From: an uncultured Caldilineales bacterium
GTDB lineage: Bacteria > Chloroflexota > Anaerolineae > J102
Length of the DNA stretch: 58,107 bases
Assembly: GCA_964565065.1 (NCBI GenBank)
Contig: CAZMDD010000132.1
Location: 1 to 58,107 of the forward strand
Reading direction: 5' to 3'
A model generated the notes under the pieces. That model was not told the DNA's origin and did no database searches. It saw only the letters and a program-made list of their open reading frames with translations. This document shows, one piece after another, positions 5,641-33,956 of the stretch. Position 1 is the first letter of the stretch. Each line of letters starts with the position of its first letter. Both the position numbers and the translations under genes were made by a program.

Positions 5641-7113
5641 ATGCTTTACATCATTCGTCATTTTCGCATTCTTCTTCTCTCGATCACCCTTCTGTTTTTG
5701 GCTATCAGTGGCTCTCGTGCCAACGCGGATGAAGGTATTATTCGCCGCTCTCCCGAAGTTTCGTTTGGGGTTTATGTGTGGAAAGATGGCCCGCAGATTG
5801 CGGGCGGGCCCGAGCTGAAAGCTACCGGAGCGCAATGGGCCAGCGTTTTTATCGTCTGGTCAGATATCGAGGGCATGCCCGGCGTTTACAACTGGACGCA
5901 AACAGATGCGCTGCTCGATTCTATTAGCGATAATGGTTTCAAGACCATCGTCACCATCATTGGCAACCCGGATTGGGCAGCAGACACCATCTGCGGCCCC
6001 ATTCACGAAGAACAGCTCCCCCGTTTCAGCAACTTTTTGACCGCCATCACCCGCCGCTACAGCGCCCCCCCCTACAACATCAAACATTGGGCGCTTTACA
6101 ATGAACCAGATAATAGCAATGCTAACGGCTATTTTGTGAACTGGCTGGGCGGCTGTTGGGGTGGGCATCATGCCAACGCCCTGCCCGATGCCGGCGGTGC
6201 GGCCTATGCTCACATGCTCAGTTATGCCTATCCGGCCATCAAGGCGGGCGACCCCGAAGCCAATGTGCTATTGGGCGGACTGGCCTATGATTATTTCTCG
6301 GGCATCGATGAGGGAGGCATTTTTGACCCTCAATTCCTTGATGATATTTTGGCTGCGGGCGGCGGTGATTACTTTGACATCATCAATTTTCATTATTACA
6401 AAGCTTTTGACTGGCGCTGGCAGAGCGAGACCAACGGCATCCCCAATCCTTATCACCGAGGCATTAGTTCAAAGGGCTGGTATTTGCAAAACGAAGTTCA
6501 ACGCCAAACTGGTAAAAGCAAACCAGTGCTCTGCACCGAAGTAGGCGACGGCTCACGAGAACCCTCGGGAGAAGATCGTTCCGAGTTTCAGGCCCGCTAT
6601 TTGGTGCAAACCCTAATTCGAGGCTACTACGGCGGCATCTCGCCCACCATCTGGTTTGATGGTGTAGATGAAATGTGGCTGCCAGGTGGCAATACGATGA
6701 CCAGCATGGGCCTGCTCAACGATGATTTGTCGCCCAAAATTGCTTATCTTGCCTATCAAACGCTCACCCGCGAGCTGGCCGGCGCGCATTTTGTGCGCAC
6801 ACGCGAAGATTTAGGACTGCGTTTCGAGGGCTACGAATTCGAGGTGCAAGGACGCAGCAAGCTGGTGTTGTGGGATTCAGAAAGTGGACAACACACCATC
6901 TCTCTGGCCATCTCCAAGCCGGGGGGCACGCTACGTGTGGTAGAAAAAACAGGCCAGGATTTGAAAATCGTCGATGGTTCGGGCCTGGACAAAGATGGTC
7001 TGAAAAATGGTTATGTCGAGGTTATTGTCTCACGCAGCCCCCGTTATTACGAAGATTTAAGTATACCGCTACACACCGAACATCTGTTTTTGCCGGTTTT
7101 GCACACCAGATAA
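5641..7113 (+). CDS. Secreted clan GH-A glycoside hydrolase (GH39/GH5-like)
   Basis: Signal peptide; WSDIE..GVYNW, YNEPD acid/base, INFHYY, LCTEVG nucleophile; C-terminal HLFLPVLHTR. Confidence 0.8.
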   Translation: MLYIIRHFRILLLSITLLFLAISGSRANADEGIIRRSPEVSFGVYVWKDGPQIAGGPELKATGAQWASVFIVWSDIEGMPGVYNWTQTDALLDSISDNGFKTIVTIIGNPDWAADTICGPIHEEQLPRFSNFLTAITRRYSAPPYNIKHWALYNEPDNSNANGYFVNWLGGCWGGHHANALPDAGGAAYAHMLSYAYPAIKAGDPEANVLLGGLAYDYFSGIDEGGIFDPQFLDDILAAGGGDYFDIINFHYYKAFDWRWQSETNGIPNPYHRGISSKGWYLQNEVQRQTGKSKPVLCTEVGDGSREPSGEDRSEFQARYLVQTLIRGYYGGISPTIWFDGVDEMWLPGGNTMTSMGLLNDDLSPKIAYLAYQTLTRELAGAHFVRTREDLGLRFEGYEFEVQGRSKLVLWDSESGQHTISLAISKPGGTLRVVEKTGQDLKIVDGSGLDKDGLKNGYVEVIVSRSPRYYEDLSIPLHTEHLFLPVLHTR

Positions 7114-7136
7114 TGCCATTTTTCGCCGCTGGCAAT

Positions 7137-7165
7137 TTGCCAGCTACAGGCTTTCGTGCTAAAAT
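7137..7165 (+). promoter_or_regulatory. Sigma70-type promoter for rplS
   Basis: TTGCCA (7137-7142), 17-bp spacer, TG-n-TAAAAT (7160-7165). Confidence 0.65.
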
Positions 7166-7310
7166 ATCCAACTGCTCAAGGTGAACTGATTTAGCGCCGT
7201 TTGGCGCTTTCATTTTGTCTGTCGGGCAATCATTGTTGAGGATGACGGGGTAGTTGCCTGGTCAACACTCGTCCGCTCCAAAATCTATAAATTCAGACAA
7301 GGAAAAAACC

Positions 7311-7661
7311 ATGTCCTACTTATTGGAATCATTAGAAAACGAATATCTGAAAGAAGACGTTCCTGAACTCAGGATTGGCGATATCGTCAAAGTTTATAAC
7401 CGCATTGTCGAAGGTAAAAATGAGCGTGTTCAGGTCTACCAGGGCACAATTATCGGCATGAAAGGCACAGGCCCGGCCAAAGCCATCACCGTGCGTAAAA
7501 TTGGTGCTCATGGCATCGGCGTCGAACGTATCTTCCGAATCCATGCTCCCCGTGTCGAAAAAATCGAGATTGTCCGCCACAGCAAAGTGCGTCGGGCCAA
7601 ACTCTACTTCTTGCGCGATCGTGTCGGCAAGAAGGCCCGCCTGAAACAACTTCGCCGATAA
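7311..7661 (+). CDS. rplS: 50S ribosomal protein L19
   Basis: GDIVKVYNRIVEGKNERVQVYQG, GVERIF, KVRRAKLYFLR; AAGGA RBS before ATG 7311. Confidence 0.98.
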   Translation: MSYLLESLENEYLKEDVPELRIGDIVKVYNRIVEGKNERVQVYQGTIIGMKGTGPAKAITVRKIGAHGIGVERIFRIHAPRVEKIEIVRHSKVRRAKLYFLRDRVGKKARLKQLRR

Positions 7662-7686
7662 CCAACGGCATCTCTCTTTACTTTAC

Positions 7687-7718
7687 AAGAACGTGAGTCT
7701 CGGGCTCGCGTTCTTTTT
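7687..7718 (+). terminator. Intrinsic terminator after rplS
   Basis: AAGAACGTGAG..CTCGCGTTCTT hairpin followed by T tract. Confidence 0.75.
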
Positions 7719-7736
7719 GTTTTCGCCCCTAAAATC

Positions 7737-9176
7737 ATGATAAACTGGGGCATGAACCGGCTCGATACGCAATTCATCCAATTCGCCCGGCGCTGGGGCC
7801 TTGTGGCGGTGAGCAGCATCATTCCCCTGGGAGTGGCGTGGCAATTTCGTCATGCCATCGCCTATGACGATACCTACATCACCCTGACCTACGCCCGGAA
7901 CATCGCCCAGGGACACGGTTTTGTGTACAATGGCGGGCCCATCATGCTGGGAACCACCAGCCCATTGCTAGCTTTGTGGCTGGGCTTTTGGGGAGCGGTA
8001 CTGCAAACCAACAACATGGCCCAACTAGCCCTAATCACGGGCGCACTGGCTTGGGCTGGCACGGTCTGGCTGGCATTTTGGCTGGGCGAACAGCTTCAGG
8101 GGCCCGCTGCGGGCAAGTTAATGGCAATTTTAATGGCCACATTAGCCATCTGGCCACATGTGCTGCGAGCAGAATTTCCGCTACTCATGGCCTTCTCCTT
8201 GCTGGCGTTGGTGCTGAGCATGCGTCAACGTTACGGATGGGCAGGCATTTTCTTTGGATTGGCCTGCTTGACGCGCGGGGATGCGGCCCTGCTGGCCGGA
8301 CTTAGCGGACTGGCCATCCTTTGGCAAAAACGGCGCGTGCCCTGGAGGCTGGTGGGGGGATTCAGCCTGGTTCTGGCCCCGTGGTTTCTGTATGCCTCCC
8401 TCACCTTTGGCAATCCCCTGCCCGCCACGCTGGACATCAAACGGGCGCATCGGGCCTATGGCATTTGGCCGCACATCATCACAGGATTTTGGCGCTGGTT
8501 CCAGCGTACTGCCTGGCCCTTTCAGCTTCGCTTTGCGCTTACAGTGCTACTGGCGCCCATCGCACTAACTCGACGCAACTTGTGGGCTACGGTACTGCTG
8601 GGCTGGGGCCTGCTGCACGCCCTAAGCTACACATGGCTCAATGTTCCCTTTTACTTTTGGTATGTACTGCCCATCTTTGTCATAGCCAGTCTGGGCGCGG
8701 GCCTAACCCTGGCCACCTACAAACAAAAGAAACTGTCCGGAGTGCTACTCATGGTGCTGGTGGTTCTGGGCGGAGTGGGATTGAACAATGCCGTAGCCCG
8801 GGCCGAACGCGTCAATCCCCGATCACAAGCATATCTCGATACCGCAGCGTGGCTAAAAAACAACACCACGCCCGATAGCACTGTGGGCTACATCGAAATT
8901 GGCATCCTTGCCTACTTCTCCCAGCGCCCAGTCCTGGATTTGCTGGGCCTCACCACGCCCGGGGCAGCCACCTATCTGCAACAAGGAGACATCGGCCCTT
9001 ACTTCGAAACCCTCCGACCCGATTACTACATTCGCAACAGCGATATCGACAACTGGAAAATGTGCAAACAAATCAACAAACGCTCCTATTTTCAGCAAGC
9101 CTACCACCCCGTGGCCACCATTCCCCAGCGCCACCGGAAGCCCATCATCATCTACCAACGAACAGACAAGCACTAA
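7737..9176 (+). CDS. Multi-pass GT-C-fold glycosyltransferase (lipid-linked sugar donor type)
   Basis: YDDTYITLTYARNI motif after first TM, about 10 TM segments, C-terminal soluble domain with EIGILAY..VLDLLGL; start may be 7752. Confidence 0.72.
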   Translation: MINWGMNRLDTQFIQFARRWGLVAVSSIIPLGVAWQFRHAIAYDDTYITLTYARNIAQGHGFVYNGGPIMLGTTSPLLALWLGFWGAVLQTNNMAQLALITGALAWAGTVWLAFWLGEQLQGPAAGKLMAILMATLAIWPHVLRAEFPLLMAFSLLALVLSMRQRYGWAGIFFGLACLTRGDAALLAGLSGLAILWQKRRVPWRLVGGFSLVLAPWFLYASLTFGNPLPATLDIKRAHRAYGIWPHIITGFWRWFQRTAWPFQLRFALTVLLAPIALTRRNLWATVLLGWGLLHALSYTWLNVPFYFWYVLPIFVIASLGAGLTLATYKQKKLSGVLLMVLVVLGGVGLNNAVARAERVNPRSQAYLDTAAWLKNNTTPDSTVGYIEIGILAYFSQRPVLDLLGLTTPGAATYLQQGDIGPYFETLRPDYYIRNSDIDNWKMCKQINKRSYFQQAYHPVATIPQRHRKPIIIYQRTDKH

Positions 9177-9432
9177 CTTTTGCGACGCACAAAGGCAGAC
9201 ACGCCTTTTTGCCTTCCAGACACAACCGCTAGATTTACCGCAGCGGCTGGCAGCCCAGCACTTAGCGACATCGTCACAAAAATTCATTCATCAAAAGTGT
9301 AACGCTTTATAAATTTGCAACATCTAATAAATCCGTGGCTGGTGTTAAGGCGACATCTGCACCACTGGCCCGGATTTTATTTTGCCATTTTCTCATTCCG
9401 AGTTTCACATACATTAAGGAGTAAGCCAAATT

Positions 9433-10128
9433 ATGCCTCTTTTGAGCCCTGATGACGCCAAAGCTGTACAGCAGCAATTTGAAGAAAACATTTCCCGCCC
9501 GGTCAAAATGATTGTGGTCACCAGCCAGCAAAATTGCATGTACTGCAAAGAAGTTAAAATGCTGGCTGAAGAACTGGCCGACCTTTCTGACCTGATTGCT
9601 GTTGAAGCCTACGACATGCAGCAAGATAAAGCCATTGTCGAACTTTACAACCTGGACAAAACGCCCGCCATGGTGGTCGTCGCCGATGGCCGCGGCGATG
9701 AGCCCGACACCGACTTCGGCATCCGCTTCTACGGCATCCCCAGCGGTTACGAATTCATGTCCATGCTCGATGCCCTGAACACCGTGGGCAGCAATGGCAA
9801 AAACATCCAGCTTATGCCCGAAACCCGGCAATTTTTGGACAACCTGACCCAGGATATTCACATGCAGGTCTTCATCACCCCCACCTGCCCCCATTGCCCC
9901 CGTGCCGTCATGCTGGCACACCATCTGGCCTATGCCAGCCCCCGCGTCACCTCCGACATGGTGGAAGCAATGGAATTCCAGGAACTTTCCAACAAATACA
10001 GCGTTTACGGCGTGCCCCGTTCCGTCATCAACGAAACAGTTCACCAAGAGGGTGCCGTGCCCGAGCCCATGATGCTGCAAAAGCTGAAAGAGGCTGTGGC
10101 TGTCAGCAGCCCCGCCACACCCGTCTAA
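9433..10128 (+). CDS. Protein-disulfide oxidoreductase with two thioredoxin folds (PDO/AhpF-NTD-like)
   Basis: CMYC and CPHC motifs, RFYGIPSGYEF, VYGVP; AAGGAG RBS. Confidence 0.9.
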   Translation: MPLLSPDDAKAVQQQFEENISRPVKMIVVTSQQNCMYCKEVKMLAEELADLSDLIAVEAYDMQQDKAIVELYNLDKTPAMVVVADGRGDEPDTDFGIRFYGIPSGYEFMSMLDALNTVGSNGKNIQLMPETRQFLDNLTQDIHMQVFITPTCPHCPRAVMLAHHLAYASPRVTSDMVEAMEFQELSNKYSVYGVPRSVINETVHQEGAVPEPMMLQKLKEAVAVSSPATPV

Positions 10129-10173
10129 AACATGCTGGCCTGCGCCAGTTTAGATTAACGATTCACGTCCCCC

Positions 10174-10209
10174 AAAACGCTTCCATCCATGCAGATGGAG
10201 GCGTTTTTT
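10174..10209 (+). terminator. Intrinsic terminator after the PDO gene
   Basis: AAAACGCTTCCATC..GATGGAGGCGTTTTTT hairpin. Confidence 0.8.
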
Positions 10210-10355
10210 ATTGCCCCCTTCTTGCCCACCATTTTTGCAGAAACATGATACAATTCAAGTACCTGTACAACGCATAGTTCCCTTTTGGTCGCCAAGACAC
10301 GAATCAAGCCCGTATGCGCTGCTGGCATCGGCAACTTTATGAAAGGCATGATAGC

Positions 10356-11060
10356 ATGAAACGATTGGCATTAGCATTGTTGGGCATCGGATTGGTGCTA
10401 ACCTTTGTCTTGGGAAACAGCGGCCCCATGACATTGATTTATCCACTATGGATTGCAACCTATCTATTTAGAGACAAGCTGGAGCAGATATTCGCCAAAT
10501 TTCCAGGCGCTACCGGATTTATTGTGGCAGGCGTTGCCTATGGGATGATCATCGAAGTCTTTGTCATCATGGATAACTGGCATATCCCCCCGGAAAAGCA
10601 GGTTCTGTTCGATGCAAACCCTGTGAAGGATTTGACTTTTGGAATCTTCTACTATGCCTTTGTGATACTTAGCTGGTATGCTCTGCTCAGAAAAATAACA
10701 TTTTCGCCCCGCGCCTTATTTTTGATTACCGGCCTTTATGGCCTTGTAGCCGAAGAATCTGGACAGGTTGTCATGCGGATGTTGCAGCAGCCATTTCCGG
10801 GCATCGTGTACGCGATTTTCGTGATGATTGTGTATGGAATGTTTCCCATGCTGGCACTCATGGTCACAGAAAAACGCTTCCCGCCCGAAAGAAAAAAGAA
10901 TCATCTGGGATGGAGCATTCTGGCGCTTGCCATTTTATTTTTACAACTCGCCATTTATGGCAACACCATCTTTCCCTGGTTGAAAAACATTTTGCCAGCA
11001 TCCTCCCTCACCCCCCCAAAAAACCTTGCCCAACTTCTCAGTTTACTTCACCTCGGGTAA
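10356..11060 (+). CDS. Hypothetical integral membrane protein (about 6 TM)
   Basis: Long hydrophobic ORF, visibly more AT-rich; ends 8 bp before the radical SAM gene; start moved to ATG 10356. Confidence 0.7.
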   Translation: MKRLALALLGIGLVLTFVLGNSGPMTLIYPLWIATYLFRDKLEQIFAKFPGATGFIVAGVAYGMIIEVFVIMDNWHIPPEKQVLFDANPVKDLTFGIFYYAFVILSWYALLRKITFSPRALFLITGLYGLVAEESGQVVMRMLQQPFPGIVYAIFVMIVYGMFPMLALMVTEKRFPPERKKNHLGWSILALAILFLQLAIYGNTIFPWLKNILPASSLTPPKNLAQLLSLLHLG

Positions 11061-11068
11061 GATGAAGC

Positions 11069-12307
11069 ATGCCTCATTTTGATTTCCTCCTCCCCGACGC
11101 CCGCCCGGTACACATTCGCGTCAATGACCGCGCCCTGACTATCAGCATCGACGAACTCAGCGTCTACACCTTTGATCTGGCGGGACGTTTGTTTGGCCTG
11201 TTCGACCACGGCATCAACTATCGTCGGGGCCTGGATGGCCGCATTCTGGCCCGATGGCGGGAGAAACAGGGGCAGCGGGCCCGGCGCTGGCTATCGCCCG
11301 AAGCACGCGACGCCCTGATGGTTACTGTGCAACAAGCGCTAAAACAGCTACAAGCCGCCATCCCCGCAGCCGCAGGCCCGCCACTGCATCCTCTACTGCA
11401 ACGGGCCATCAACTTCGACCACCAGGCCGACGCCCATGAATTCGCCCATGTTTACCGCCCGGTCAGCATCCTGCCCCCCGACCAATACCAGGCCCTGGTG
11501 CTGCAAGCCACCGAAGGCTGCTCCTTCAACACCTGCACCTTTTGCACCCTTTATCGCGACCGACCCTTCAAAATCCAATCGCCCGCCAGCTTTGCCCGAC
11601 ACCTGGATGAAGTCAGAGCCTTCTTCGGGCCCGGCATCACCCTGCGTCGCAGCCTCTTTTTGGCTGATGCCAACGCCCTCATCATCCCCCAAAAGCGCCT
11701 TTTGCCCCTGATGCAGCAGCTCGCCCGCGCGTTCCGCATCATGCCCGCGGGCCTGGACGCGCCCGCACGCCGCGCCTGGCAAACCGCACATCCCCAGGGC
11801 ATGACCGGCCTGTACGCGTTTGTCGATGGCCTGAGCGCAGAGCGCAAAAGCGCGGAGGATTTTCGGGAACTGCGCGCACTGGGTCTACGCCGCGTTTACA
11901 TCGGTCTGGAAAGTGGCCACGAACCCCTGCTGGCCTGGCTGCAAAAACCCAGCAGCGCCGCCGAAATGGCACAAGCGGTCGGACACATGAAACAAGCGGG
12001 CCTGGCCGTGGGCGTCATCGTGCTACTGGGTGCGGGCGGAGAACCCTTTGATGCCGGTCATGTGCAGGATACCGCCGCCATACTCAACGCCATGCCCCTG
12101 GATGCCACCGACATCATCTATCTGAGCCCCTTCCAGCCGGACATAGGCGCACCTTACCTGGCTTTGGCGCAAGAAGCGGGCATTGCACTGCCAACGCCAC
12201 AACTGATCGCTGCTCAACGACAGCGCCTACTGGCAGCATTGCGTCTGCCCGAGCCCCCAGCGGGTCCCAAGCGCGTGCCCTACAACCTGGCCGATTTTGT
12301 GTATTGA
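11069..12307 (+). CDS. Radical SAM protein with N-terminal extension
   Basis: EGCSFNTCTFC cluster motif, FLADANAL, RVYIGLESG, VIVLLGAGG. Confidence 0.88.
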   Translation: MPHFDFLLPDARPVHIRVNDRALTISIDELSVYTFDLAGRLFGLFDHGINYRRGLDGRILARWREKQGQRARRWLSPEARDALMVTVQQALKQLQAAIPAAAGPPLHPLLQRAINFDHQADAHEFAHVYRPVSILPPDQYQALVLQATEGCSFNTCTFCTLYRDRPFKIQSPASFARHLDEVRAFFGPGITLRRSLFLADANALIIPQKRLLPLMQQLARAFRIMPAGLDAPARRAWQTAHPQGMTGLYAFVDGLSAERKSAEDFRELRALGLRRVYIGLESGHEPLLAWLQKPSSAAEMAQAVGHMKQAGLAVGVIVLLGAGGEPFDAGHVQDTAAILNAMPLDATDIIYLSPFQPDIGAPYLALAQEAGIALPTPQLIAAQRQRLLAALRLPEPPAGPKRVPYNLADFVY

Positions 12308-12312
12308 AAAAT

Positions 12313-12454
12313 GTTACGACTAAGGTAGCCCGGCTAGAAACCACTAAGATACGAAGCCACAAAGGCACAAAGAAAGAAAAAGGTTTGAAATGCTTGGTGT
12401 TCTTAGTGTCTTTGTGCCTTTGTGGTGACTGAAGTCGGGGACGTTAGTCGTTAC
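12313..12454 (+). mobile_element. MITE family A copy (142 bp)
   Basis: 8-bp direct repeat TGAAAAAT at 12305-12312 and 12455-12462; the duplication includes the radical SAM stop codon. Confidence 0.93.
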
Positions 12455-12584
12455 TGAAAAATAAAAAAAGCTGGAGCACGGGAGCGGGAACGACACACAA
12501 CAGCAGCAAAATCAACCCATCGGTTGATAGCCAATCATCTTCCAGCCTGATGACAACGCACGCTCAGTATGCTAAACTGGGATT

Positions 12585-12735
12585 AAAACCTGACGAAAAT
12601 AGATTCGGCACTAAAAACGTCACCTTAACGGTAGCTATCTAAGTAGGTGATGCCATAGAAGTTGAAATGGAGCGATTCATCACTATCCAGAACACACCAC
12701 CAAGAGCACCAAGGCACGAAGAAAAAGCAAAAACC
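12585..12735. repeat. Fragments of repeat family B
   Basis: 12640-12735 resembles 41771-41865; reverse complement of about 12590-12622 resembles 41981-42013. Confidence 0.75.
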
Positions 12736-12827
12736 GCTCAAGAAAAATCCACGCATTCCGTAAAATCTATAATTGATGCGTCTCACCACAGATTTCACAC
12801 ATTCTCACAGGCACCAGGAGCCCCCCC

Positions 12828-13751
12828 ATGTCCCCACAAACCCAAGTTAGCCATCTGCGCAAGGTCTACGGCGAAACAGTGGCTGTGAATGATGTTTCCT
12901 TCTCCGTAGAGGCAGGCGAGATATTCGGCATCATCGGGCCCAACGGCGCAGGCAAAACCACCACGGTCGAGTGCATCATCGGCCTGCGCCAGCCAGATGC
13001 CGGAAAAATAACGGTACTGGGACTGGATGCGCTGCAACAGCGCGATGCCATCATCCCCCGCATCGGCATCCAGTTGCAAGAATCCTCTCTGCCCCCCCGC
13101 ATCAAAGTGTGGGAGGCCCTGGAACTCTTCGCATCCTTCTACCAACACACCATCCCCTGGGAACCCCTGCTGGAAACCTGGGGCCTGGCCCATAAACGCA
13201 ACAGCACCTTTGATAAACTTTCGGGCGGACAAAAACAGCGCCTGTTCATCTGCCTGGCACTGCTCAACGATCCCGAAATCGTCTTCTTGGATGAACTGAC
13301 CACTGGCCTGGATCCCAAGGCCCGCCGCGACACCTGGCAGGCCATTCAGGCAATTCGCGATCAGGGCAAAACAGTGGTGCTCGTTACGCATTTTATGGAT
13401 GAAGCGGAATACCTTTGCGACCGAGTCGCCATCATCGACCAGGGCCGGGTCATTGCCCTGGATTCACCCCAGGGCTTGATTAACAGCCTCAATGGCGAGC
13501 AGCGCATCCTGTTCGAAACCCGGGGTCACTTCCCCATCGACCTCATGCGCAGCATTCCCCAGGTTACAAAAGTGGAGGTGGATCATTTTTCGGGCGTGGT
13601 CTATGGCCGCGAGCAAGGCTTTATTGCCGCAGTAGTCACAGCCCTGGAATCCCATCACATCCCCTACAAAAATTTGCGAACCCAACACCCCGATCTGGAA
13701 GATGTCTTTTTGGCTCTGACAGGACGCTCTCTTGCCGCCACGGAGGCTTGA
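12828..13751 (+). CDS. ABC transporter ATP-binding protein (drug-exporter/ABC-2 type)
   Basis: GPNGAGKTT, LSGGQKQR, VFLDELTTGLD, LVTH; CAGGAG RBS. Confidence 0.95.
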   Translation: MSPQTQVSHLRKVYGETVAVNDVSFSVEAGEIFGIIGPNGAGKTTTVECIIGLRQPDAGKITVLGLDALQQRDAIIPRIGIQLQESSLPPRIKVWEALELFASFYQHTIPWEPLLETWGLAHKRNSTFDKLSGGQKQRLFICLALLNDPEIVFLDELTTGLDPKARRDTWQAIQAIRDQGKTVVLVTHFMDEAEYLCDRVAIIDQGRVIALDSPQGLINSLNGEQRILFETRGHFPIDLMRSIPQVTKVEVDHFSGVVYGREQGFIAAVVTALESHHIPYKNLRTQHPDLEDVFLALTGRSLAATEA

Positions 13752-13753
13752 CT

Positions 13754-14509: not shown

Positions 14510-14518
14510 CCTCATCCT

Positions 14519-16373: not shown

Positions 16374-16415
16374 CGCACAGGCGCCCGCACATCATGCGGC
16401 CGTGTGCGCACCTCC

Positions 16416-16536
16416 GCCCGCGGCTGAAGCCACGGGCTACCAAGGCAAAGCCCCGCTGGGGCTGCCCCCTCAGGTGTCTGCTGCGCAGCCGGTCAGTGGG
16501 TCAGAGGTCAGAGGCCAGAGAGTCAGTGATCAGTGG
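16416..16536 (-). repeat. Copy 2 of the 81-bp hairpin repeat plus TGACCTC-type heptamers
   Basis: Reverse complement of 108-188 followed by about 6 heptamer units. Confidence 0.9.
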
Positions 16537-16750
16537 TAAACCGCCAGCCCCTCCCACCGTGAGGCCCCAGCCGAAACGGGGGGAGGCTGGGAGGGGGGCA
16601 CAGGCGCCCGCTCAACCGTCATCAACCGCCACCAATCTCCCCTGAATTTTCAAATCCCCTCCAAGACCCGCCCGCCCGCCGCCCACGCGGTTGAGCCGTC
16701 CCCCGTGCCAATGCCAAGCCCCGCCTTTCCGCTGCCCGAGCCGGGCGCCC

Positions 16751-16794: not shown

Positions 16795-16840
16795 GGTGGC
16801 AAAAAATTGAAAGCCACGACCTATATCGTTACGATGCCCT

Positions 16841-22877: not shown

Positions 22878-22981
22878 GAAATTACCTGGTAAAGTGAAAT
22901 CGGCGGTACTGTGTTACTATCGATTGTTGTTTTGGCGTGGTTGCCGAAAGCATGACTGGCAGCAACTGCCAAACCGACCCA

Positions 22982-24412: not shown

Positions 24413-24558
24413 GGTGAATTCCGTTAGAATGGGGAGAGAGGTAATTCCGGGGATGCACCCGATTGTGGCATAATATCAGAAAATTGTTATGTCTTCAAAT
24501 ATCGCCTTAGCACCGATTGCATTTTTCACTTCTCAGCCATCTTTCTTTCACCTGTCTT

Positions 24559-26061: not shown

Positions 26062-26197
26062 GGTGTTTGTGTTGAATTTGGAGATTCGGTGGAGATCGGT
26101 GGCGGTTGATGGCGGTGGGGCGGGCGCGGACGCATGACGCGCTCACCCTTCTTTTTCATTCTCGCAGATTCGCAGCCTTGGCATAAGACAACCAACA

Positions 26198-26953
26198 TCA
26201 ACGAAATAAATCACGCTCTTTGCTGCGAAGAAGCTCGACCGTTTGGCCCGGCCCCGAACGATAGGGAACGCCACGCATGTGCACCACGGGCAGCGCTTCA
26301 TCGGTGCCACCTTGCAACAAGGACGCGGCGGCGGCAATTTCATCCGCTGTGCCCAGCACGGTAATGCGCATCTTCTTGCCAAACAGATCCTGCTCGCCGC
26401 GACGGTCAGTCAGAGGCAGCAAGCCTGCCACGCCAATAGCCACCCCCACCGTGCCATGTCGCCACGCCCGACCATGACTATCATTGAGAACCACAGCAAC
26501 ATCAGCGCCCGTGGCCGCGTGCAGGCCCGCGCGTAAGGCCCGCGCCGACGCGTCCGGGTCTGCGGGCAGGAGTAAAACCGTGCCCGCAGCCTGCACATTG
26601 CTGGCATCGATACCAGCATTGGCCGAAATAAACCCCAGTCGATGTTGCACCACAATCAAACCGGGCCGCGTGCGCAAAACCTCGGCAGATTCAGCCAAAA
26701 TCAACGTGACCAGGCGAGGATCTTTACGGATAAACCGGGCCACCTCTCGGGCCTCGGGCGTGGGCGTCACCCGATCCAGCGCCACAAAACGCCCCTCCGC
26801 CTTGGAAACCACCTTAGAAGTCACGACCAGCACATCACCATCCTGCAAGATGATACCGGCCGCATCCAGACCTGCCAAAATCAGCGCCACCAAATCATCC
26901 CCCGGCTGAATGAGGGGAATGCCAGGCAGTGCAGTCAGCGTGAGTTGCGGCAT
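26198..26953 (-). CDS. cofE: Coenzyme F420-0:L-glutamate ligase
   Basis: GIPLIQPGDDL, VVTSKVVSKAEGR, SANAGIDASN, DSHGRAWRHG, DEIAAAA; start at ATG 26953. Confidence 0.95.
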   Translation of the reverse strand: MPQLTLTALPGIPLIQPGDDLVALILAGLDAAGIILQDGDVLVVTSKVVSKAEGRFVALDRVTPTPEAREVARFIRKDPRLVTLILAESAEVLRTRPGLIVVQHRLGFISANAGIDASNVQAAGTVLLLPADPDASARALRAGLHAATGADVAVVLNDSHGRAWRHGTVGVAIGVAGLLPLTDRRGEQDLFGKKMRITVLGTADEIAAAASLLQGGTDEALPVVHMRGVPYRSGPGQTVELLRSKERDLFR

Positions 26954-26957
26954 TAGC

Positions 26958-27632
26958 TCAAGCCTCAATGCCGGTGATGCGGATACCCGCGTTGCGGGTT
27001 TTGTAAATAGCATTGATGGAAATAAGCACCGCGGTCAGTCCCTCCACCACCGCCGAATTTTGCAAGGCGCCCGCATGCACACCACGCATACCCGCGGCCC
27101 GGGCCAACGCCATCGCCAAATTGCGATCCGCACGCTTGGCGCCGCAAATCAGCACATCGCAATCAATGGCATGATCGGCATCCAGCAAATGATGAGCACT
27201 AACATTCTGAAAAGCAGCCACCACCCGGGTCTCGGGCCCGACCTGCGCCTGAGCCTCCAATGCGGCAGAACCACCAGGTGCGGGCGCATAACGGCCCTTC
27301 TTCTTGCCCAACAGCGGCGCCACCAACGTGATGAGCACCTTGCCAGCCAATCCCGGCTTGATGCTTTCGATGATGCGCTCCTGCGATTCGTAAGGAACCG
27401 AAAGCACCACCACATCGGCCATTTGTGCAGCTTCAAGATTGCTGGCGCCGCGCAAGGCCACATCACCCAGCTTCGTGCGCAGCTCGGCAGCCACACGCTC
27501 ACCTTTTTCTGTGCTACGCGACCCGATAACCACATCCAGGCCCGCCCGGGCCCAACGCATGGCAAATCCAGAACCTTCGGAACCCGTGCCGCCAATCACT
27601 GCAACAACACCTAATAATTGCTTTTCAGACAT
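26958..27632 (-). CDS. npdG: NADPH-dependent F420 reductase
   Basis: IGGTGSEGSG, IGSRS, VLSVPY, VVAAFQNVSA, DVLICG, VEGLTAVLISIN; adjacent to cofE. Confidence 0.92.
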   Translation of the reverse strand: MSEKQLLGVVAVIGGTGSEGSGFAMRWARAGLDVVIGSRSTEKGERVAAELRTKLGDVALRGASNLEAAQMADVVVLSVPYESQERIIESIKPGLAGKVLITLVAPLLGKKKGRYAPAPGGSAALEAQAQVGPETRVVAAFQNVSAHHLLDADHAIDCDVLICGAKRADRNLAMALARAAGMRGVHAGALQNSAVVEGLTAVLISINAIYKTRNAGIRITGIEA

Positions 27633-27944
27633 AAAAGAAACTCCTGATAAGATGAATGACTTGTCCACAGTGGCAACTCTTGTTATCATGTAACCCAATA
27701 AATCTGCGACCGATGTTACAGGTGCAGTAGAGCGTTACCATTGCCACGAACTTGATGACTCGAAAATTTACTTGACAAATGCGCCAAGGGAGAAAAGTAT
27801 ATCACGGAGCGCCAAACCGGGCCATATTTCCGGAATTCTGAAAAAACTGTCATCCAGATTTGCCGCAGACTTCATTCACTTTTCACCTGCAAGCATTATA
27901 CTTGAGAATACCCTACCACCCTATCGCTCATTCACAATACCTTT

Positions 27945-29366
27945 ATGCGCACCTTTTTCCCTGCCCTCTTCATCCTTCTTGCCCTGGGATTACTGCTGCT
28001 GTTTTCACCCATCCTGGCAGCAGCCCCCACACCCACAGCCACGCCCGAAGCACCACACCCCCTGTCGGCGCTATCACCCATGGGCCTGGGCGAATGGCAC
28101 ACCCAGGCCAGCCACACCAGCGCCAACCTGCACGCCATTCAATTTTTGGATGACCGGGAAGGCTTTGCCGCGGGCGATGGCGGCACACTGCTGCACACTG
28201 TGGATGCGGGCGAACACTGGCTATCGCTGAACAGCGGCATCACCCAAACCATCCGCGCCCTACATTTTTTCGATGCGCAACATGGCTGGATGGCCGGCGA
28301 CACAGGCCTGCTGGCCAGCACAGCGGATGGCGGTGCAACCTGGACTGCGGAACTCATTCCCTTCCCCGGCAACCTATACACCTTCAGCTTTGTTGCACCT
28401 GACGATGCCTGGGTCGCGGGCGATGCGGGCCTGCTGTATCATTTTGATGGAAGTACCTGGCAGCAAAAACCCATGAACACCACCCTGGATATCTTCACCC
28501 TGGTCTTTGTCGATGCACAAAATGGCTGGGCCGGAGGCGAAGATGGCGCTATCTTGCACACCGCCGACAGCGGCAACACCTGGAGCATCCAAACCCTGGG
28601 CGGCGCAGACGCTTTTTACAGCCTGGCCTTTACCGATGCGCAGCATGGCTGGGCCGTGGGAACCGCGGGCGTCATGCTTTACACCGAAGATGGCGGACTG
28701 CACTGGCGTCTCCGCTCTCATGCGGGCGATAAAACGCTCTTTGGCATGACCATGGCTGACCGTTTTGTAGGCTGGGCAGTAGGTGATGATGGTCTGGCAC
28801 TGTACACCGGCGATCGCGGCGCCACCTGGTTCCAGGATAATCCGGGCACAGGCTTCACCTTGCGGGCAGTTTCTGCTCCCCTTCCCTGGCACGCCTGGGT
28901 GGCTGGCGATGCCGGAACCCTCCTCCACTGGCAAGACCCCCGCCCCACACCCACGCCCACACCCACAGCCACGCCCACACCTACAACCACCCCCACACCC
29001 ACGCCCACACCCACAGCCACGCCCACGCCCGAACCCTGCAACATCCAACTCTTCGTTTACTTCGATACCGACGAAAGTGGCAGCTTTGGCTCAGGCGATA
29101 CCCCCATCAGCGACACCCCCATCACCTTGCGCGACGCGAACAACATCATCCGCGGTGGCGGCTCTACCGACGCAGAGGGCAAAGTCATCTTCTACAACCT
29201 ACTGCCTGGTGATTACACCCTGTGGGCCACCACGCCCTGGGGCTACCGACCCACAACCCAACATCCTGTCAATGCACATCTGGTCCCGGGCGATGACCTC
29301 ACACTACAAGTAGGCTTCATCTCCGATAACGCCTACCAATACGTGCCCCTCATCTGGCGTGAATGA
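27945..29366 (+). CDS. Secreted YCF48/BNR beta-propeller + PT linker + SdrD-B-like domain
   Basis: Signal peptide; repeated GW.vG..G.iL.T.DgG.tW units; (PT)n linker; YFDTDESGSFGSGD; C-terminal YQYVPLIWRE. Confidence 0.85.
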   Translation: MRTFFPALFILLALGLLLLFSPILAAAPTPTATPEAPHPLSALSPMGLGEWHTQASHTSANLHAIQFLDDREGFAAGDGGTLLHTVDAGEHWLSLNSGITQTIRALHFFDAQHGWMAGDTGLLASTADGGATWTAELIPFPGNLYTFSFVAPDDAWVAGDAGLLYHFDGSTWQQKPMNTTLDIFTLVFVDAQNGWAGGEDGAILHTADSGNTWSIQTLGGADAFYSLAFTDAQHGWAVGTAGVMLYTEDGGLHWRLRSHAGDKTLFGMTMADRFVGWAVGDDGLALYTGDRGATWFQDNPGTGFTLRAVSAPLPWHAWVAGDAGTLLHWQDPRPTPTPTPTATPTPTTTPTPTPTPTATPTPEPCNIQLFVYFDTDESGSFGSGDTPISDTPITLRDANNIIRGGGSTDAEGKVIFYNLLPGDYTLWATTPWGYRPTTQHPVNAHLVPGDDLTLQVGFISDNAYQYVPLIWRE

Positions 29367-29409
29367 CCAGTGCCCGCCCATTCCTGCTACCCGCTGTTTT
29401 CCAAGCAGC

Positions 29410-29438
29410 TTGCTGGAGCAATTATCCAGTGCTATAAT
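29410..29438 (+). promoter_or_regulatory. Sigma70-type promoter for the OmpR regulator
   Basis: TTGCTG, 17-bp spacer, TG-n-TATAAT (29433-29438). Confidence 0.7.
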
Positions 29439-29461
29439 GCACACACCGCCGAACCCCCAAA

Positions 29462-30181
29462 ATGCCCTCCAAAAACCTGCACTCCCCTCAAAATCCTATG
29501 CGAATTCTGGTTGTAGATGACGATCCCCCTAGCGTAAAGATGACCTCCTTTCTACTGCGCGAAGAAGGCTACGAGGTGATAGCAGCCACCAATGGCGGCG
29601 ATGCACTCATCCTGGCAGAGCAAGAAGACCCAGACCTCATCCTACTGGATGTGATGATGCCCGGTCTGGATGGTTTTGCCACGCTACGGGAGCTACGCTC
29701 TCGTTTCGCCATTCCGGTCATCTTCCTTTCTGCCAAAGGCGAAACCTCGGATCGGGTAGCGGGCCTGGAACTGGGTGCCGATGATTACTTATCCAAACCA
29801 TTTGAACCTTCAGAACTACTGGCCCGGGTCAAGGCGGTTTTACGCCGCACCGAAGCCTACGCACTAGGCGAATCCTCCGACCGCATCGAGACCGGAGGCA
29901 TCCACCTGGACCCGCTGACCAATCGGGCCGAGCTGGCCAACGGGCGTGTTGTCGAACTCACCCCCATCGAAACCAGACTGCTGCACACCCTCATGCGCAA
30001 TGCCGGGCGAGTTCTCACCCATGATCAACTGCTGAACAGCGTTTGGGGAGCCAACTACGGTGGCTATCCCAACCAAATCGCAGTCTACATCCGGCGACTA
30101 CGCACCAAAATCGAAGAAAATCCCGACGAACCGCAATATCTGGCAACTGTGCGCGGCGTCGGCTACCGTTTCGAAGTTTGA
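29462..30181 (+). CDS. OmpR/PhoB-family response regulator
   Basis: ILVVDDD, LLDVMMP, GADDYLSKPF, LTPIETRLL, LRTKIE, TVRGVGYRF; start may be 29498. Confidence 0.96.
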   Translation: MPSKNLHSPQNPMRILVVDDDPPSVKMTSFLLREEGYEVIAATNGGDALILAEQEDPDLILLDVMMPGLDGFATLRELRSRFAIPVIFLSAKGETSDRVAGLELGADDYLSKPFEPSELLARVKAVLRRTEAYALGESSDRIETGGIHLDPLTNRAELANGRVVELTPIETRLLHTLMRNAGRVLTHDQLLNSVWGANYGGYPNQIAVYIRRLRTKIEENPDEPQYLATVRGVGYRFEV

Positions 30182-30247
30182 CCCCCAACACGATGCGTGA
30201 GCCGCTCGCAGACGCCTGATTCCATACTTTGGACGCCAGACTTCAGC

Positions 30248-30297
30248 AGGGGACGTGGACAGGTGACTTGACGCCTGCTGCCAGCGTCCCCTTTTTC
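30248..30297 (+). terminator. Probable intrinsic terminator after the OmpR regulator
   Basis: AGGGGACGTGG...CCAGCGTCCCCT followed by TTTT. Confidence 0.55.
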
Positions 30298-30329
30298 CTA
30301 TTCCCGGCATGATTCTCCCATAACCGCCC

Positions 30330-33300
30330 ATGAAAACAAAACTTCAGTCTACTCTTCTCCTGCTCATCGCTCTGGGCACAGCTTTTACCCTACTACTGGC
30401 TCTGCCGGCAGGACTGGGCGCGTTTGCCGTTGCCCACAACACCGCTGCAAACTGGCACGATTTTACCCCTGTCCCCGATGCCTGGCTGAACACCACGCCC
30501 GTGCAGACATCGGTCATTGTCAGCGACAGCGACGGTCTGAGCAATGACGCCGCCTATCAATACTCGGCAGATGGCATCAACTGGAGCGCATGGCTCACAG
30601 ACAACCTGCAAATAACGGGAACCATCTCGACCACCCGCCAGCTCACCATCACCGCGCTGGCCGTGGCCGATGGCGTTCATGCGGTACGCTACATCATCAC
30701 CGACGCCTTGGGCATAGCCGAAACCAGTCCCGCAGCCACCTTCCAGGTCGATACCCAGGCTCCGGCTGCGCCCGCAGGCCTGACCTTGCGCCCCAATGGC
30801 TGGCAAACCGCCACAGCCCCCACCTGGAAGGCCACCTGGCAAAATCCTGCCGAACTCAGCGGCGTGGCGGCAGCCTGCTACAAAATTGGCGCTGCGCCAA
30901 CCCATCCGCAAGATGGCCACTGCACCAGCGCTAACAACATCACCAGCATCGATACCCTCTCACCCACGCAGGAAGGAAGCTTCGATTTTTATCTCTGGCT
31001 ACAAGATGCTGCCGGAAACAGCACCATCACCAACACAGCAGTACTCACCCAAAGCATCCAATGGGATAAAACTGAGCCCAATCTCTTTTTAGATGTTTTT
31101 GGAACCATCGGGCAGGCAGCTTGGTACACCAGCACTGTAAACATCAACATCATGGCTTCCGATAACCAATCGGGCCTCGACAGCGTGCGCTACAAGCTGG
31201 GAGATACCCCTTGGCAAGAGGGACGCACCCTGAACCTAAGCGCCGCGGGCATTCACACCTTTACCGCACAAGCCATCGATGTGGCGCAAAATCAAAAAAC
31301 GCTGGAACCACGCATCTTTAAAGTCGACTTGGCAGCTCCTACAACAAGTTTAACAATCTCGGGCACTGCCGGACCAGAAAACTGGTACGAAAGCGCTGTT
31401 TCGATAGATTTTGCAGTTAGCGATGATGCCTCGGGCCCCCAAACAACGCACTGGCAAATGGATGACGAGCCCTGGCAACAAAGCAGCGTGGCCACAGTGG
31501 ATGCCGATGGCGAACACAGCCTCCATTATTTTAGCAGCGATGTTGCGGGCCACGCCGAAGCCCCCCGCGAAACCCTCATCAAAGTTGACCAGCACCCGCC
31601 CGTCACCTCCTACGCGGTACTCTCATCCCATGCAGCGGTCAATGGCTGGTATCGGCAACCTGTCACCATCACCCTGGTTCCGGTAGATGACGGCATTGGC
31701 GTGCAAAACACCCATTACCGCGTAAACGATGGCCCGTGGCAAGAGGGAACCACCTTTACACTGACCACCAGCGCCGATTACGCCATTAATTTTTACTCGG
31801 TGGATGCGCTGAATCACGAAGAAACAGTGGCCAGCATCCCCGACGGCGTTCATATCGATACCATCCCACCGCGGGCCCCCAGTCCTCTGGCGGTAACCCC
31901 AGGCGTGTGGACGCGCACCAACAGCTTTGATTTGCTCTTTGCCCTGCCCACCGACCTCAGCGGCATCGATGGCGCCTACATCAAAGTGGGCGAACCCCCA
32001 CTTTCGCCCACCGATGGCCAATGGCACGAGGATGTTAGCAACACTCTCACCCAAATTCAAGTTCCCAACGAAGGCGCCTACAAAGCCTACATCTGGCTGC
32101 GAGACCAGGCCGGCAACGTGGATCATGGCAATTATGGCGTGTGGGAAGATGCTCTGAGCCTGAAATATGATGCCACCCCGCCACTGACACACCTGGCAGT
32201 GCAGGGCGATGTAGGGAAAAATGGCTGGTACACCTCGCCCATCACCATCACCTTTGTGCCCACCGATGCTCTTTCCGGGCCCGCTGCCACCTGGGTTAGC
32301 ATCAATGGCGGGCCCCAAGCCGAACATACCGCCCTAACCCTTACCCAACAATCCAAACATGTATTGCGCTACCACACCCTGGATGTAGCCGGAAACCAGG
32401 AAGAAGACCAATTTGCCACCTTCCGCATCGATTATCAGGCCCCGGGCAGCCCCAGCAATGTCACTGTGCAGCCCCTAACCTGGACAAACAGCAACACCTT
32501 CACCCTCACCTGGAACAACCCGGCCGATGTCTCGGGCATCGGCGCTGCCTACTACGCCATCGGTCATGCCCCCGCAGGCCCGGAAGATGGCACACAAATT
32601 GCCGCAACGGGCGTCGTTTCCGGCATCACGGCCCCCGGCGAAGGCCTGTGGGACCTTTATCTGTGGGTGGAAGATAAAGCGGGCAATGTAGATGTGCGCA
32701 CCATGGTTCACCAAAAAAACGCGCTGCACTACGATAAAACACCGCCCCGCTCTATTCTCAAAGTAACCAAAGGCACGCTGGGCGATAACGATTGGTACAT
32801 CACCCCTGTTACGCTGGCTATCGACGCCACCGACCTGGCCAGCGGGCCTGCGGGCGTTCGCTACCGCATCAATGGCGACGACTGGCACTATCAGGCCAAA
32901 ACAGCATACATTCACCTGGGCCACACCGGCCAATTCGAAATCGACTACCAATCGGTCGATAACGCCAACAACCTCGAAGCCCCTCAGCACATCCTGATCA
33001 GCGTTGACTTAGATGCACCGCGGGCCCGATTCGCCCCCATTGACCGCTACCAGCGCATCTCTAACTTTGTGCTACACTGGATCGGCAGCGACCAGCCCCG
33101 TGGCAGCGGCCTGAATGGTTTTCAGGTGCAGGCCCGAGATGGCCGCAATGGCGCGTGGACAACCTGGGTCAATCTGGCAAACCAAGAGCCGTCGCGGCGC
33201 TACTATGGCGACTACGGCCACCGTTACTTCTTCCGGGTGCGGGCCCAAGACAAAGCAGGACACTTCTCACCCTGGCAGGAACTCCCCTGGGGCATTTATG

Positions 33301-33956
33301 TCGATCGCTTGCAAAACGGAGACTTTGGCAACGGTGACTTTGGCGCCTGGCAACATGGCGGACGCCTGCTGCAAAGCATCCATCCGGCCAGGGGCCCGCA
33401 GGGCAACACTGTTTCGGTGGCTGAACTGGGCACCGAGGCCTACGGAGCCAGCAACAACTTTGATGTGCCGGGCAACGTCCCTGTCGGCTGCGCGGCCATC
33501 ACCCAAACAGTGCGTATTCCCGGCTCAGCCGTGCTGGGCAGCCCCATGCTCACCTTTTGGTATCGCATGCGCACCTACGATGCCGAATACAGCGAACGCT
33601 TCAACAAAATCTACGACACCCTGGACGTTCATCTGCACTACGGCGATGAAGACCATCTTGTCCTGCGCACCGGTCAGCCCTACGACGAATGGAAAAAACA
33701 TGATGGCAAAAAGTTAGCCGATTTAGGCTGGCGTCAAGCCTTCATCCCCATTCCCCGCAGCATGATTGATGAAATCGTCACCATCAGCATTGAAAACTGG
33801 AACCGTAACGACAACTGGCTCAACACCTGGACACAAGTCACCGATATTCGCCTGTGGGAGCCGCACCAACTCTTCTTGCCTAACCTGGCAAGCGGTCGCG
33901 CTGCGGTCACAACTGCACAACAGCCAGCCACATCTGCCCATTCTGCCCAGCGCTAA
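30330..33956 (+). CDS. 1208-aa secreted Ig-like repeat protein (OmpL47-like and FN3-like modules, C-terminal CBM-like domain)
   Basis: N-terminal hydrophobic signal; about 5 'G..GWY.S.V...D..SG...Y...D.AGN.E..D..PP' modules interleaved with about 3 'W.NP.D.SG..AY..G..P..P.DG..W..D.AGN' modules; FN3-like RVRAQDKAG; QLFLPNL near end. Confidence 0.85.
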   Translation: MKTKLQSTLLLLIALGTAFTLLLALPAGLGAFAVAHNTAANWHDFTPVPDAWLNTTPVQTSVIVSDSDGLSNDAAYQYSADGINWSAWLTDNLQITGTISTTRQLTITALAVADGVHAVRYIITDALGIAETSPAATFQVDTQAPAAPAGLTLRPNGWQTATAPTWKATWQNPAELSGVAAACYKIGAAPTHPQDGHCTSANNITSIDTLSPTQEGSFDFYLWLQDAAGNSTITNTAVLTQSIQWDKTEPNLFLDVFGTIGQAAWYTSTVNINIMASDNQSGLDSVRYKLGDTPWQEGRTLNLSAAGIHTFTAQAIDVAQNQKTLEPRIFKVDLAAPTTSLTISGTAGPENWYESAVSIDFAVSDDASGPQTTHWQMDDEPWQQSSVATVDADGEHSLHYFSSDVAGHAEAPRETLIKVDQHPPVTSYAVLSSHAAVNGWYRQPVTITLVPVDDGIGVQNTHYRVNDGPWQEGTTFTLTTSADYAINFYSVDALNHEETVASIPDGVHIDTIPPRAPSPLAVTPGVWTRTNSFDLLFALPTDLSGIDGAYIKVGEPPLSPTDGQWHEDVSNTLTQIQVPNEGAYKAYIWLRDQAGNVDHGNYGVWEDALSLKYDATPPLTHLAVQGDVGKNGWYTSPITITFVPTDALSGPAATWVSINGGPQAEHTALTLTQQSKHVLRYHTLDVAGNQEEDQFATFRIDYQAPGSPSNVTVQPLTWTNSNTFTLTWNNPADVSGIGAAYYAIGHAPAGPEDGTQIAATGVVSGITAPGEGLWDLYLWVEDKAGNVDVRTMVHQKNALHYDKTPPRSILKVTKGTLGDNDWYITPVTLAIDATDLASGPAGVRYRINGDDWHYQAKTAYIHLGHTGQFEIDYQSVDNANNLEAPQHILISVDLDAPRARFAPIDRYQRISNFVLHWIGSDQPRGSGLNGFQVQARDGRNGAWTTWVNLANQEPSRRYYGDYGHRYFFRVRAQDKAGHFSPWQELPWGIYVDRLQNGDFGNGDFGAWQHGGRLLQSIHPARGPQGNTVSVAELGTEAYGASNNFDVPGNVPVGCAAITQTVRIPGSAVLGSPMLTFWYRMRTYDAEYSERFNKIYDTLDVHLHYGDEDHLVLRTGQPYDEWKKHDGKKLADLGWRQAFIPIPRSMIDEIVTISIENWNRNDNWLNTWTQVTDIRLWEPHQLFLPNLASGRAAVTTAQQPATSAHSAQR

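Follow-up and report, generated by a model that had tools for sequence, protein, structure and literature searches.

Three exported proteins encoded on a 58,107-nt contig of an uncultured Caldilineales bacterium (Chloroflexota; GenBank assembly GCA_964565065.1, contig CAZMDD010000132.1; this whole stretch is referred to as the window) had been noted in a preliminary description to share a short hydrophobic C-terminal motif. The observation is real for two of them, a GH5-like glycoside hydrolase and a YCF48-like beta-propeller protein. The motif is not new, as it is the catalogued YLP-box, of which the window holds divergent members. The YLP-box is a modular and lineage-restricted element carried by soluble, Sec-exported Chloroflexota proteins from dozens of unrelated families. 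New here are boxes placed just after the signal peptide, at domain junctions and in tandem, the predicted location of the box outside the fold, and the lack of any other membrane anchor in the proteins that carry it. The initial proposal of a candidate sorting or assembly signal agrees with the enrichment results given below and with the label 'putative sorting motif' used by NCBIfam.

Tagged proteins of the window and their endings

The first protein, a GH5-like (cellulase family) exported glycoside hydrolase of 490 amino acids (aa), is encoded at 5641..7113 on the + strand (translation, Pfam PF00150) and consists of a signal peptide (about residues 1-29), a TIM-barrel, a C-terminal beta-sandwich and the tag. 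Its open reading frame (ORF) terminates in EHLFLPVLHTR at 7081-7113, and the last nine residues, LFLPVLHTR (7084..7110, + strand, stop codon 7111-7113), form a divergent YLP-box. The second protein, of 473 aa, is encoded at 27945..29366 on the + strand (translation, Pfam PF14870 and PF17210) and combines an exported YCF48/BNR beta-propeller, a Pro/Thr linker at about nt 28935-29030 and an SdrD_B-like domain; an exact-sequence look-up of this protein gave no record. It terminates in AYQYVPLIWRE at 29334-29366, with the YLP-box YQYVPLIWRE as its last ten residues (29334..29363, + strand, stop codon 29364-29366). The third is an exported giant of 1208 aa, in which OmpL47-type and Big_13 repeats are combined with a C-terminal beta-sandwich-like domain (30330..33956, + strand; translation, NCBIfam NF047446, Pfam PF19077). 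Its weak and atypical YLP-like segment, QLFLPNL (33867..33887, + strand; matrix score and three close homologues, see below), is followed by a hydrophilic tail of 22 aa (33888-33953), and the terminus from 33867 onwards reads HQLFLPNLASGRAAVTTAQQPATSAHSAQR.

The strings and coordinates of the three endings were reproduced exactly by translation, and signal-peptide-like N-termini, judged by eye, were present in each protein. The cores are indeed unrelated, as Pfam assigned them to GH5/cellulase, to YCF48/BNR plus SdrD_B-like and to OmpL47-type/Big_13, respectively, and no hydrophobic stretch follows the motif in any of the 3 proteins, in line with the earlier statement that no transmembrane helix follows. 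No C-terminal domain of the type IX secretion system (T9SS; PF18962) and no dockerin (PF00404) was matched by Pfam in the three proteins. The regular expression originally given for the motif, [LY][FY][LV]Px[LI], misses YQYVPLI, which has Q in first position, while the narrower common core [FY][LV]Px[LI] holds. This core occurred seven times in the window (all open frames of at least 150 codons), three of the occurrences being the copies described here, with three residues after the five-residue core in two of the proteins and 22 in the giant. Codons differ among the three copies and, consequently, their likeness exists at the protein level and is not that of a DNA repeat. A DNA-level repeat or a terminator as cause was rejected on the same ground, and a repeat search revealed only Pro/Thr-linker repeats in these genes.

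The window tails were scored with a position matrix from which the window copies had been left out. The YCF48-like tail reached 16.0 bits (null below 3e-6 per position); for the GH5-like tail, which has additional support from homologues, the score was 10.1 bits (null 1e-4 per position); their cores, Y-V-P-L-I-W-R and F-L-P-V-L-H-T-R, follow the pattern aromatic-L-P-[LV]-[VIL]-x-basic. The giant's tail scored 6.3 bits (null 5e-4 per position) and its core, F-L-P-N-L-A-S, contains an atypical N and no basic residue. Since about 0.6 chance matches are expected at this score in the last 35 residues of the roughly 45 window proteins, the giant's copy is not significant alone. Only three close homologues of the giant exist, which are also the only ones in which LFLP[NS]L is kept, each with a variable tail of 20-30 aa; all have this weak form and none has a canonical box. 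The tag that the preliminary description had ascribed to all three proteins therefore holds for the GH5-like and YCF48-like proteins, and it is doubtful whether the giant's LFLPNL is a YLP-box.

The homologues of the GH5-like protein come from Chloroflexota metagenome-assembled genomes (MAGs). In about 35 of the 44 closest, a Pro/Thr-rich linker of variable length leads to a box at the homologous terminus. The endings include YLPLVLR, FLPILH, YLPLLWNDS and FLPTLYRE, each directly before the stop codon, and two tandem boxes are present in some of these proteins; more distant homologues stop at the beta-sandwich without linker or C-terminal box. The YCF48-like orthologues P0121-P0123 end in IYLPMVQREQTP, YMPLIRK and FMPLIHQP, and the box was also found on distant BNR-propeller relatives of other architectures. 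The same C-terminal slot is occupied in other YCF48-like relatives by a T9SS C-terminal domain, a dockerin or a PEP-CTERM-like signal ('PEPKSALLL...RRRRLVKC' at the terminus of one relative), and this slot swap is a 'choice of anchor' pattern typical of sorting signals. The orthologues with canonical boxes thus support the assignment of the GH5-like and YCF48-like tails as divergent YLP-boxes. That the shared endings are a chance or compositional coincidence in this window is extremely improbable: the giant's copy does score at chance level, and about 35 of 123 matches to YLPLVLR in metagenome contigs (see below) are internal coincidences in cytoplasmic enzymes, but positional, flanking-residue, signal-peptide and orthologue evidence refutes this explanation for the GH5 and YCF48 copies.

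Two NCBIfam models, NF050076.1 (sort_motif_YLP) and NF053834.1 (ultrashort_CTERM), are both entitled 'YLP-box putative sorting motif-containing protein', so that the earlier view of the motif as unnamed is outdated. A tagged protein of 104 aa matched NF050076.1, and isolated tails also matched NF053834.1. Above the respective cut-offs of 15 and 10 bits were sequences of relatives (16.7-20.1 bits), among them VYLPLVMRNY (an N-proximal copy, 20.1 bits) and the terminal sequences IYLPLVMRNAQ and VFLPLVSKR, with the tails of Vgb-lyase-like propellers and CARDB proteins included. The tail of P0121 passed both cut-offs with 15.5 and 17.1 bits. The window tails SRSPRYYEDLSIPLHTEHLFLPVLHTR and LTLQVGFISDNAYQYVPLIWRE and the giant's tail gave no match to a YLP-box model at E <= 10, which is why the window tails are termed divergent copies, and an NCBIfam scan of the full-length window proteins likewise gave no YLP-box match. 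The database entries for the YLP-box provide the name only, and neither mechanism nor partner nor publication was found; a literature search retrieved no paper on the bacterial YLP-box or citing its NCBIfam accessions, and no solved structure with a YLP-box was found.

Three contigs with labels outside Chloroflexota were encountered among the homologues. L052 (Thermogutta sp. MAG), L048 (Halieaceae MAG) and P0021 (labelled Proteobacteria bacterium) are short contigs in non-Chloroflexota bins; L052 has the same tagged GH5-plus-CARDB arrangement as the Chloroflexota locus L047, and P0021 ends in the box WLPVLSTF. These contigs are probably mis-binned rather than evidence of the tag outside the phylum.

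Consensus, distribution and placement of the YLP-box

The distribution of the motif was analysed in a related-genome set of 79 loci (1.07 Mb, 851 ORFs called), almost all from Chloroflexota MAGs labelled Anaerolineae, Caldilineales, Ardenticatenales, Thermoflexales or Anaerolineales. The pattern [FYW][LIVM]P.[LIVMF] was matched 212 times in the 851 ORFs, and 35 of these matches had 0-4 residues after them, compared with about 1-3 per five-residue bin elsewhere, in agreement with the predicted enrichment at C-termini. The predicted association with exported proteins was found as well: by heuristic calls, signal-peptide-like N-termini were present in 32 of 43 tagged and 274 of 808 untagged proteins (odds ratio 5.7, p = 2e-7). 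Transmembrane segments at the C-terminus were present in 0/35 tagged vs 87/271 untagged proteins, and any transmembrane segment past residue 80 in 1/35 vs 143/271. The tagged proteins other than GH5 at these loci comprise Vgb-lyase-like propellers, CARDB proteins, a GH78 rhamnosidase, one DUF1565-plus-fn3 protein and one GH42-like protein. At one Thermoflexales locus (L082), four tagged genes are located within 10 kb; they code for two propellers, one of the PQQ and one of the BNR type, for an fn3 protein and for an unknown protein of 706 aa.

A logo built from 68 distinct tails shows the proline at position +2 in 68/68, preceded by L at +1 (59 tails) and an aromatic residue at position 0 (Y in 45, F in 16 and W in 7). 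Upstream, L, M, V or I was found at -1 in 48/68 and R at -2 in 17/68; downstream, +3 is mainly L or V, +4 is V, L, I, F or M, +5 is frequently hydrophobic or aromatic and +6 is R, K or H in 43/67, after which 0-3 residues remain to the protein end. The resulting consensus is (R)-hydrophobic-[YFW]-L-P-[LV]-[VIL]-x-[RKH]-(N-x)-stop.

Additionally, metagenome contigs were scanned independently of protein family with a degenerate 21-nt DNA pattern encoding YLPLVLR. Of the 123 matches obtained, 76 had a stop within 0-5 codons, and in 42 of these 76 the stop followed after exactly two codons, mainly N plus one residue. The flanks left free by the pattern were V, I or L at -1 in 67/75 and R at -2 in 28/75 of the terminal matches, while the internal matches were a mixture; the internal coincidences include an aminotransferase with LYDAYLPLVLRAGGVP. 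An export-like N-terminus was present in 34 of 50 complete tagged ORFs of this sample, compared with 8 of 28 ORFs with internal matches. The 76 terminal matches fell into 32 unrelated clusters, and the tagged families comprised PKD, DUF11, beta-helix/NosD, BNR plus TIG, fn3, a GH13 amylase and a ScyF-like NHL protein as well as proteins with the NCBI 'choice-of-anchor' domains Q, J and C. In a small control, 50 kb of E. coli DNA contained no C-terminal tag. The carriers are mostly MAGs labelled Anaerolineae, Caldilineales, Ardenticatenales or Thermoflexales, and the box is usually situated in the last 7-11 residues, where it is either preceded by a Pro/Thr linker or immediately adjoins a beta-rich domain.

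The box is not restricted to C-termini, and in this respect the preliminary description of a purely C-terminal signal has to be corrected. A second position matrix, trained on C-terminal tails only, gave 77 matches in real and 11 in reversed sequences, the 77 matches consisting of 45 C-terminal copies, 15 N-proximal copies, 7 first copies of tandem pairs and 10 internal copies. In the N-proximal layout, the signal peptide is followed by a Ser/Thr/Pro/Ala-rich spacer of 5-45 residues, the box and, 8-14 residues further on, the domain, with the extended consensus [VLI][YF]LP[LTI][VI]x[RNHK][NEDG][YFW]xPP. This variant is found on most of the distant GH5 homologues without a C-terminal box, and a mirror-image layout of signal peptide, box, Pro/Thr linker and domain is present at L168. 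At two fusion junctions the box stands between domains, namely as YLPFVLNDF between a Vgb propeller and GH5 (L060) and as FLPIMARNY between CARDB and GH5 (L079).

AlphaFold predicted the GH5-like window protein as a confident fold with a mean predicted local distance difference test (pLDDT) value of 90.8. Its tail, residues 479-490, has pLDDT below 50, for which reason the C-terminal box is placed outside the fold, and the N-proximal box of P0098 was predicted without secondary structure at pLDDT of about 50-57. The YLP-box is thus modelled as lying outside the fold. Packing of the box on its own domain was rejected because of the low confidence for the box in these two predictions.

Possible functions of the YLP-box

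In the favoured explanation, to which a nearly even chance is given, the YLP-box is a handle bound non-covalently by another component of the envelope, by which exoenzymes are kept on the cell surface. Sec export and removal of the signal peptide would leave the hydrophobic peptide exposed, a cell-envelope component would bind it, probably by strand addition or in a hydrophobic groove, and the enzyme or adhesin would stay on the filament surface rather than diffuse off; the binding partner would be a surface, sheath or fibre protein. Filamentous Chloroflexota have no outer membrane and are major polymer degraders in activated sludge, sediments and hot springs. Their hydrolytic activity has been tied to the cells in situ (PMC11495043). 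A more specific form of the docking explanation, in which a position-independent docking peptide, as donated strand or groove ligand, fixes exoenzymes and adhesins non-covalently to a fibre, sheath or S-layer of these filaments, is put forward tentatively and holds with a rather low probability. It would amount to surface display without transmembrane anchor, sortase or folded docking domain.

The main rival is a cleaved 'ultrashort CTERM', in which a peptidase or transpeptidase would cut in or after the box, free the last 2-5 residues and join the new C-terminus to wall, lipid or polysaccharide, as a miniature of LPXTG/sortase or PEP-CTERM/exosortase; this is considered unlikely. The YLP-box resembles LPXTG/sortase, PEP-CTERM/exosortase, GlyGly-CTERM/rhombosortase and MYXO-CTERM/myxosortase signals in its place near the C-terminus and in having several copies per genome (2-3 in the window, 4 within 10 kb at L082). 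With the three-part CTERM signals it shares its presence on signal-peptide proteins that are otherwise unrelated (32 clusters in the metagenome sample), L-P in the opening signature and a frequent location in polysaccharide loci. The order of aromatic-L-P, three hydrophobic residues and a basic residue mimics the three-part design, of which, however, a transmembrane helix and an Arg cluster are defining features (10.1101/2023.06.07.544157). In the YLP-box, the proline is followed by only 3-4 hydrophobic residues and then the end, without transmembrane helix, and instead of 2-5 basic residues there is usually a single R, K or H at +6; moreover, the box also occurs in N-proximal, inter-domain and tandem positions.

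These differences led to the preference for docking over sortase-like cleavage. If N-proximal or inter-domain boxes were cut, the protein would lose its functional domain. Tandem copies, which are foreign to cleaved sorting signals, typify binding modules strengthened by multiple contacts, and there is neither a transmembrane helix nor an Arg cluster to present the box to, and hold the substrate at, a membrane enzyme. Furthermore, no candidate enzyme was found among the neighbouring genes inspected. Cleavage would in turn account for the extreme C-terminal bias and narrow tail, with exactly two residues past YLPLVLR in the 42 terminal matches mentioned above, and one of the NCBIfam models is named ultrashort_CTERM. 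The genomic context points the same way, since many tagged GH5, Vgb and CARDB genes lie in polysaccharide-biosynthesis clusters, like PEP-CTERM genes: many GH5-like genes at loci L001-L079 are situated in clusters with genes for NDP-sugar epimerase/dehydratase, GT4, PMT_2, TMEM260-like GT-C transferases, Wzy_C, the Wzt ABC transporter, LPG_synthase_TM, GNVR/tyrosine kinase and DegT, in which the GH5-like gene is often flanked by genes for a Vgb-like propeller and a CARDB protein, both tagged.

Several observations weigh against a docking handle. The surroundings of about 110 tagged genes revealed neither a receptor nor an enzyme nor a conserved partner gene, and the copies of the window score below the NCBIfam YLP-box models. 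N-proximal copies were seen in few families only (GH5, the 'CRFGVGA' family, fn3 proteins and some metagenome cases), and about 90% of the genuine copies are located at most 5 residues from the stop codon, with a sharp mode two residues past the basic position. Such a bias might indicate a need for a free C-terminus or for a small leaving group, as expected with a peptidase or transpeptidase.

Two further explanations are less likely than docking and cleavage. A direct partitioning of the box into the membrane interface or into a hydrophobic sheath or wall polymer, as an interfacial anchor of about 7 residues without protein receptor, is improbable. It would make sense of R at -2, the aromatic residue at 0 and the basic residue at +6, often with Y or F two residues on, and tandem copies would bring avidity; the membrane-active temporins of frogs start with FLPLIGR, which is a resemblance only. 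Seven residues with a central proline do not, however, suffice for a helix or for stable membrane anchoring, and the near-invariant L-P and aromatic residue argue for specific recognition and not for bulk hydrophobicity. Lower still is the probability given to a folding or structural element, for example a strand that packs against the adjacent domain or a site at which a chaperone or prolyl isomerase acts outside the cytoplasm. The fairly fixed distance of 8-14 residues between the N-proximal box and the first GH5 barrel strand would be explained in this manner, as would the many C-terminal copies directly past the last strand of Ig-like domains. On the other hand, AlphaFold docked the box on the domain in neither arrangement, in many proteins the two are separated by long Pro/Thr linkers, the box is found on unrelated folds, and more distant homologues fold without it.

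The T9SS C-terminal domain and the dockerin occupy the same slot in homologous BNR-propeller proteins of other phyla, and the dockerin is a non-covalent docking module, as is proposed for the YLP-box; both are folded and about 60-90 residues long, whereas the YLP-box has 9-11 residues and no sequence similarity to them. Cargo-loading peptides of encapsulins, encapsulation peptides of microcompartments and the peroxisomal targeting signals PTS1 and PTS2 are conserved peptides of about ten residues that sit on a flexible linker at either terminus of a domain and are read by a receptor protein. The architecture of the YLP-box is the same, but this is an analogy only: the former serve in the cytoplasm or eukaryotic organelles, and YLP-box proteins are exported via Sec. 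In chaperone-usher and Pam pili, a partner subunit takes up a short hydrophobic strand that is located terminally or between domains, which is likewise reminiscent of the YLP-box, whereas its central proline and consecutive hydrophobic run are unlike classic donor strands. Pam pili of bacteria of the candidate phyla radiation (CPR) assemble by donor-strand exchange in an envelope without outer membrane (10.64898/2026.03.03.709456).

The commonest YLP-box family in the metagenome contigs consists of tiny exported proteins with about 75 mature residues, three 'GGGY.L' repeats and the ending GGFWGG..YR.YLPLVLRN. plus stop (L097 743-1057, L121 3600-4070, L184 1408-1737 and 13 others). These abundant 'GGFWGG' proteins might be structural subunits of the surface display envisaged above. 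One of them gave a weak match to the CPR tip pilin PamT (26.9 bits vs a family cut-off of 240), which is the sole donor-strand lead; no acceptor domain or chaperone was identified for the YLP-box. Because of this match, and because Pam pili assemble without an outer membrane, a donor-strand reading merits consideration as a lead only. Next to several 'GGFWGG' genes lies a gene for a fibre-like protein (L134 10930-12918, L202 1931-3916, L131 875-2848 and L129 8037-9755). This protein has about 600 aa and comprises YadA-like repeats, a Peptidase_S74 chaperone domain, a coiled coil and, at its C-terminus, a transmembrane segment with RRRK. It is the only recurrent untagged neighbour in the metagenome loci, but the loci concerned seem to be close relatives of one another, and its evidential weight is therefore low.

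Exported hydrolases, propellers and adhesins in large number and variety carry the YLP-box, which has so far been an orphan signal; identification of its partner would explain surface display across a phylum and could provide protein display with a peptide tag of about 9 residues. In annotation, the box allows surface or secreted proteins to be recognised cheaply in Chloroflexota MAGs, for which purpose it is relevant that current models miss divergent copies such as those of the window.

Other features of the window

The tagged genes of the window are surrounded by ordinary chromosomal genes with housekeeping or regulatory functions, among them rplS, a response regulator, gyrB and gltB. Two large ORFs of 479 and 778 aa, at 7737-9176 and 45567-47903(-), were without Pfam match; the former is located two genes downstream of the tagged GH5 gene, past rplS, and its N-terminal region is hydrophobic. 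A TPR protein with a transmembrane segment (33962-35464) adjoins a BNR/sortilin-like protein (35470-36789), and both have very long Pro/Thr tails that end in TPTPPR and TATPPR, respectively, without a YLP-box. These tails may be untagged stalks or another kind of ending. An M12B/reprolysin-like metalloprotease (42202-45276) has a signal peptide and a classic C-terminal transmembrane helix with a basic tail, LLGGLLMLGLGAAALGWAKMRQAANK at the terminus, from which it follows that the same organism also uses a conventional membrane anchor. This protease was rejected as a fourth copy, as its N-terminal 'GGLFLPAPD' scored only -1.6 bits.

Repeats were found elsewhere in the window. An intergenic repeat of about 55-60 nt, 'ACTAAGGTAGCCCGGCTAGAAACCACTAAGACACGAAGCCACAAAGGCACGAAG', is present at 4981-5039, 5044-5102, 12306-12364, 39036-39094 and 57773-57831 (+) and in inverted form at 53396-53453, most copies being situated just downstream of stop codons, and a 143-nt version of it (5051-5193) has 94% identity to 57780-57922. 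It looks like a repetitive extragenic palindromic (REP) or miniature inverted-repeat transposable element (MITE)-like sequence or a terminator-associated element. Moreover, an 85-nt inverted pair (105-189 and 16415-16499, 93% complementarity) gives rise to the look-alike spurious ORFs 1-255(-) and 16394-16645(+), and a 65-nt direct repeat with 86% identity is present at 12640-12704 and 41772-41836.

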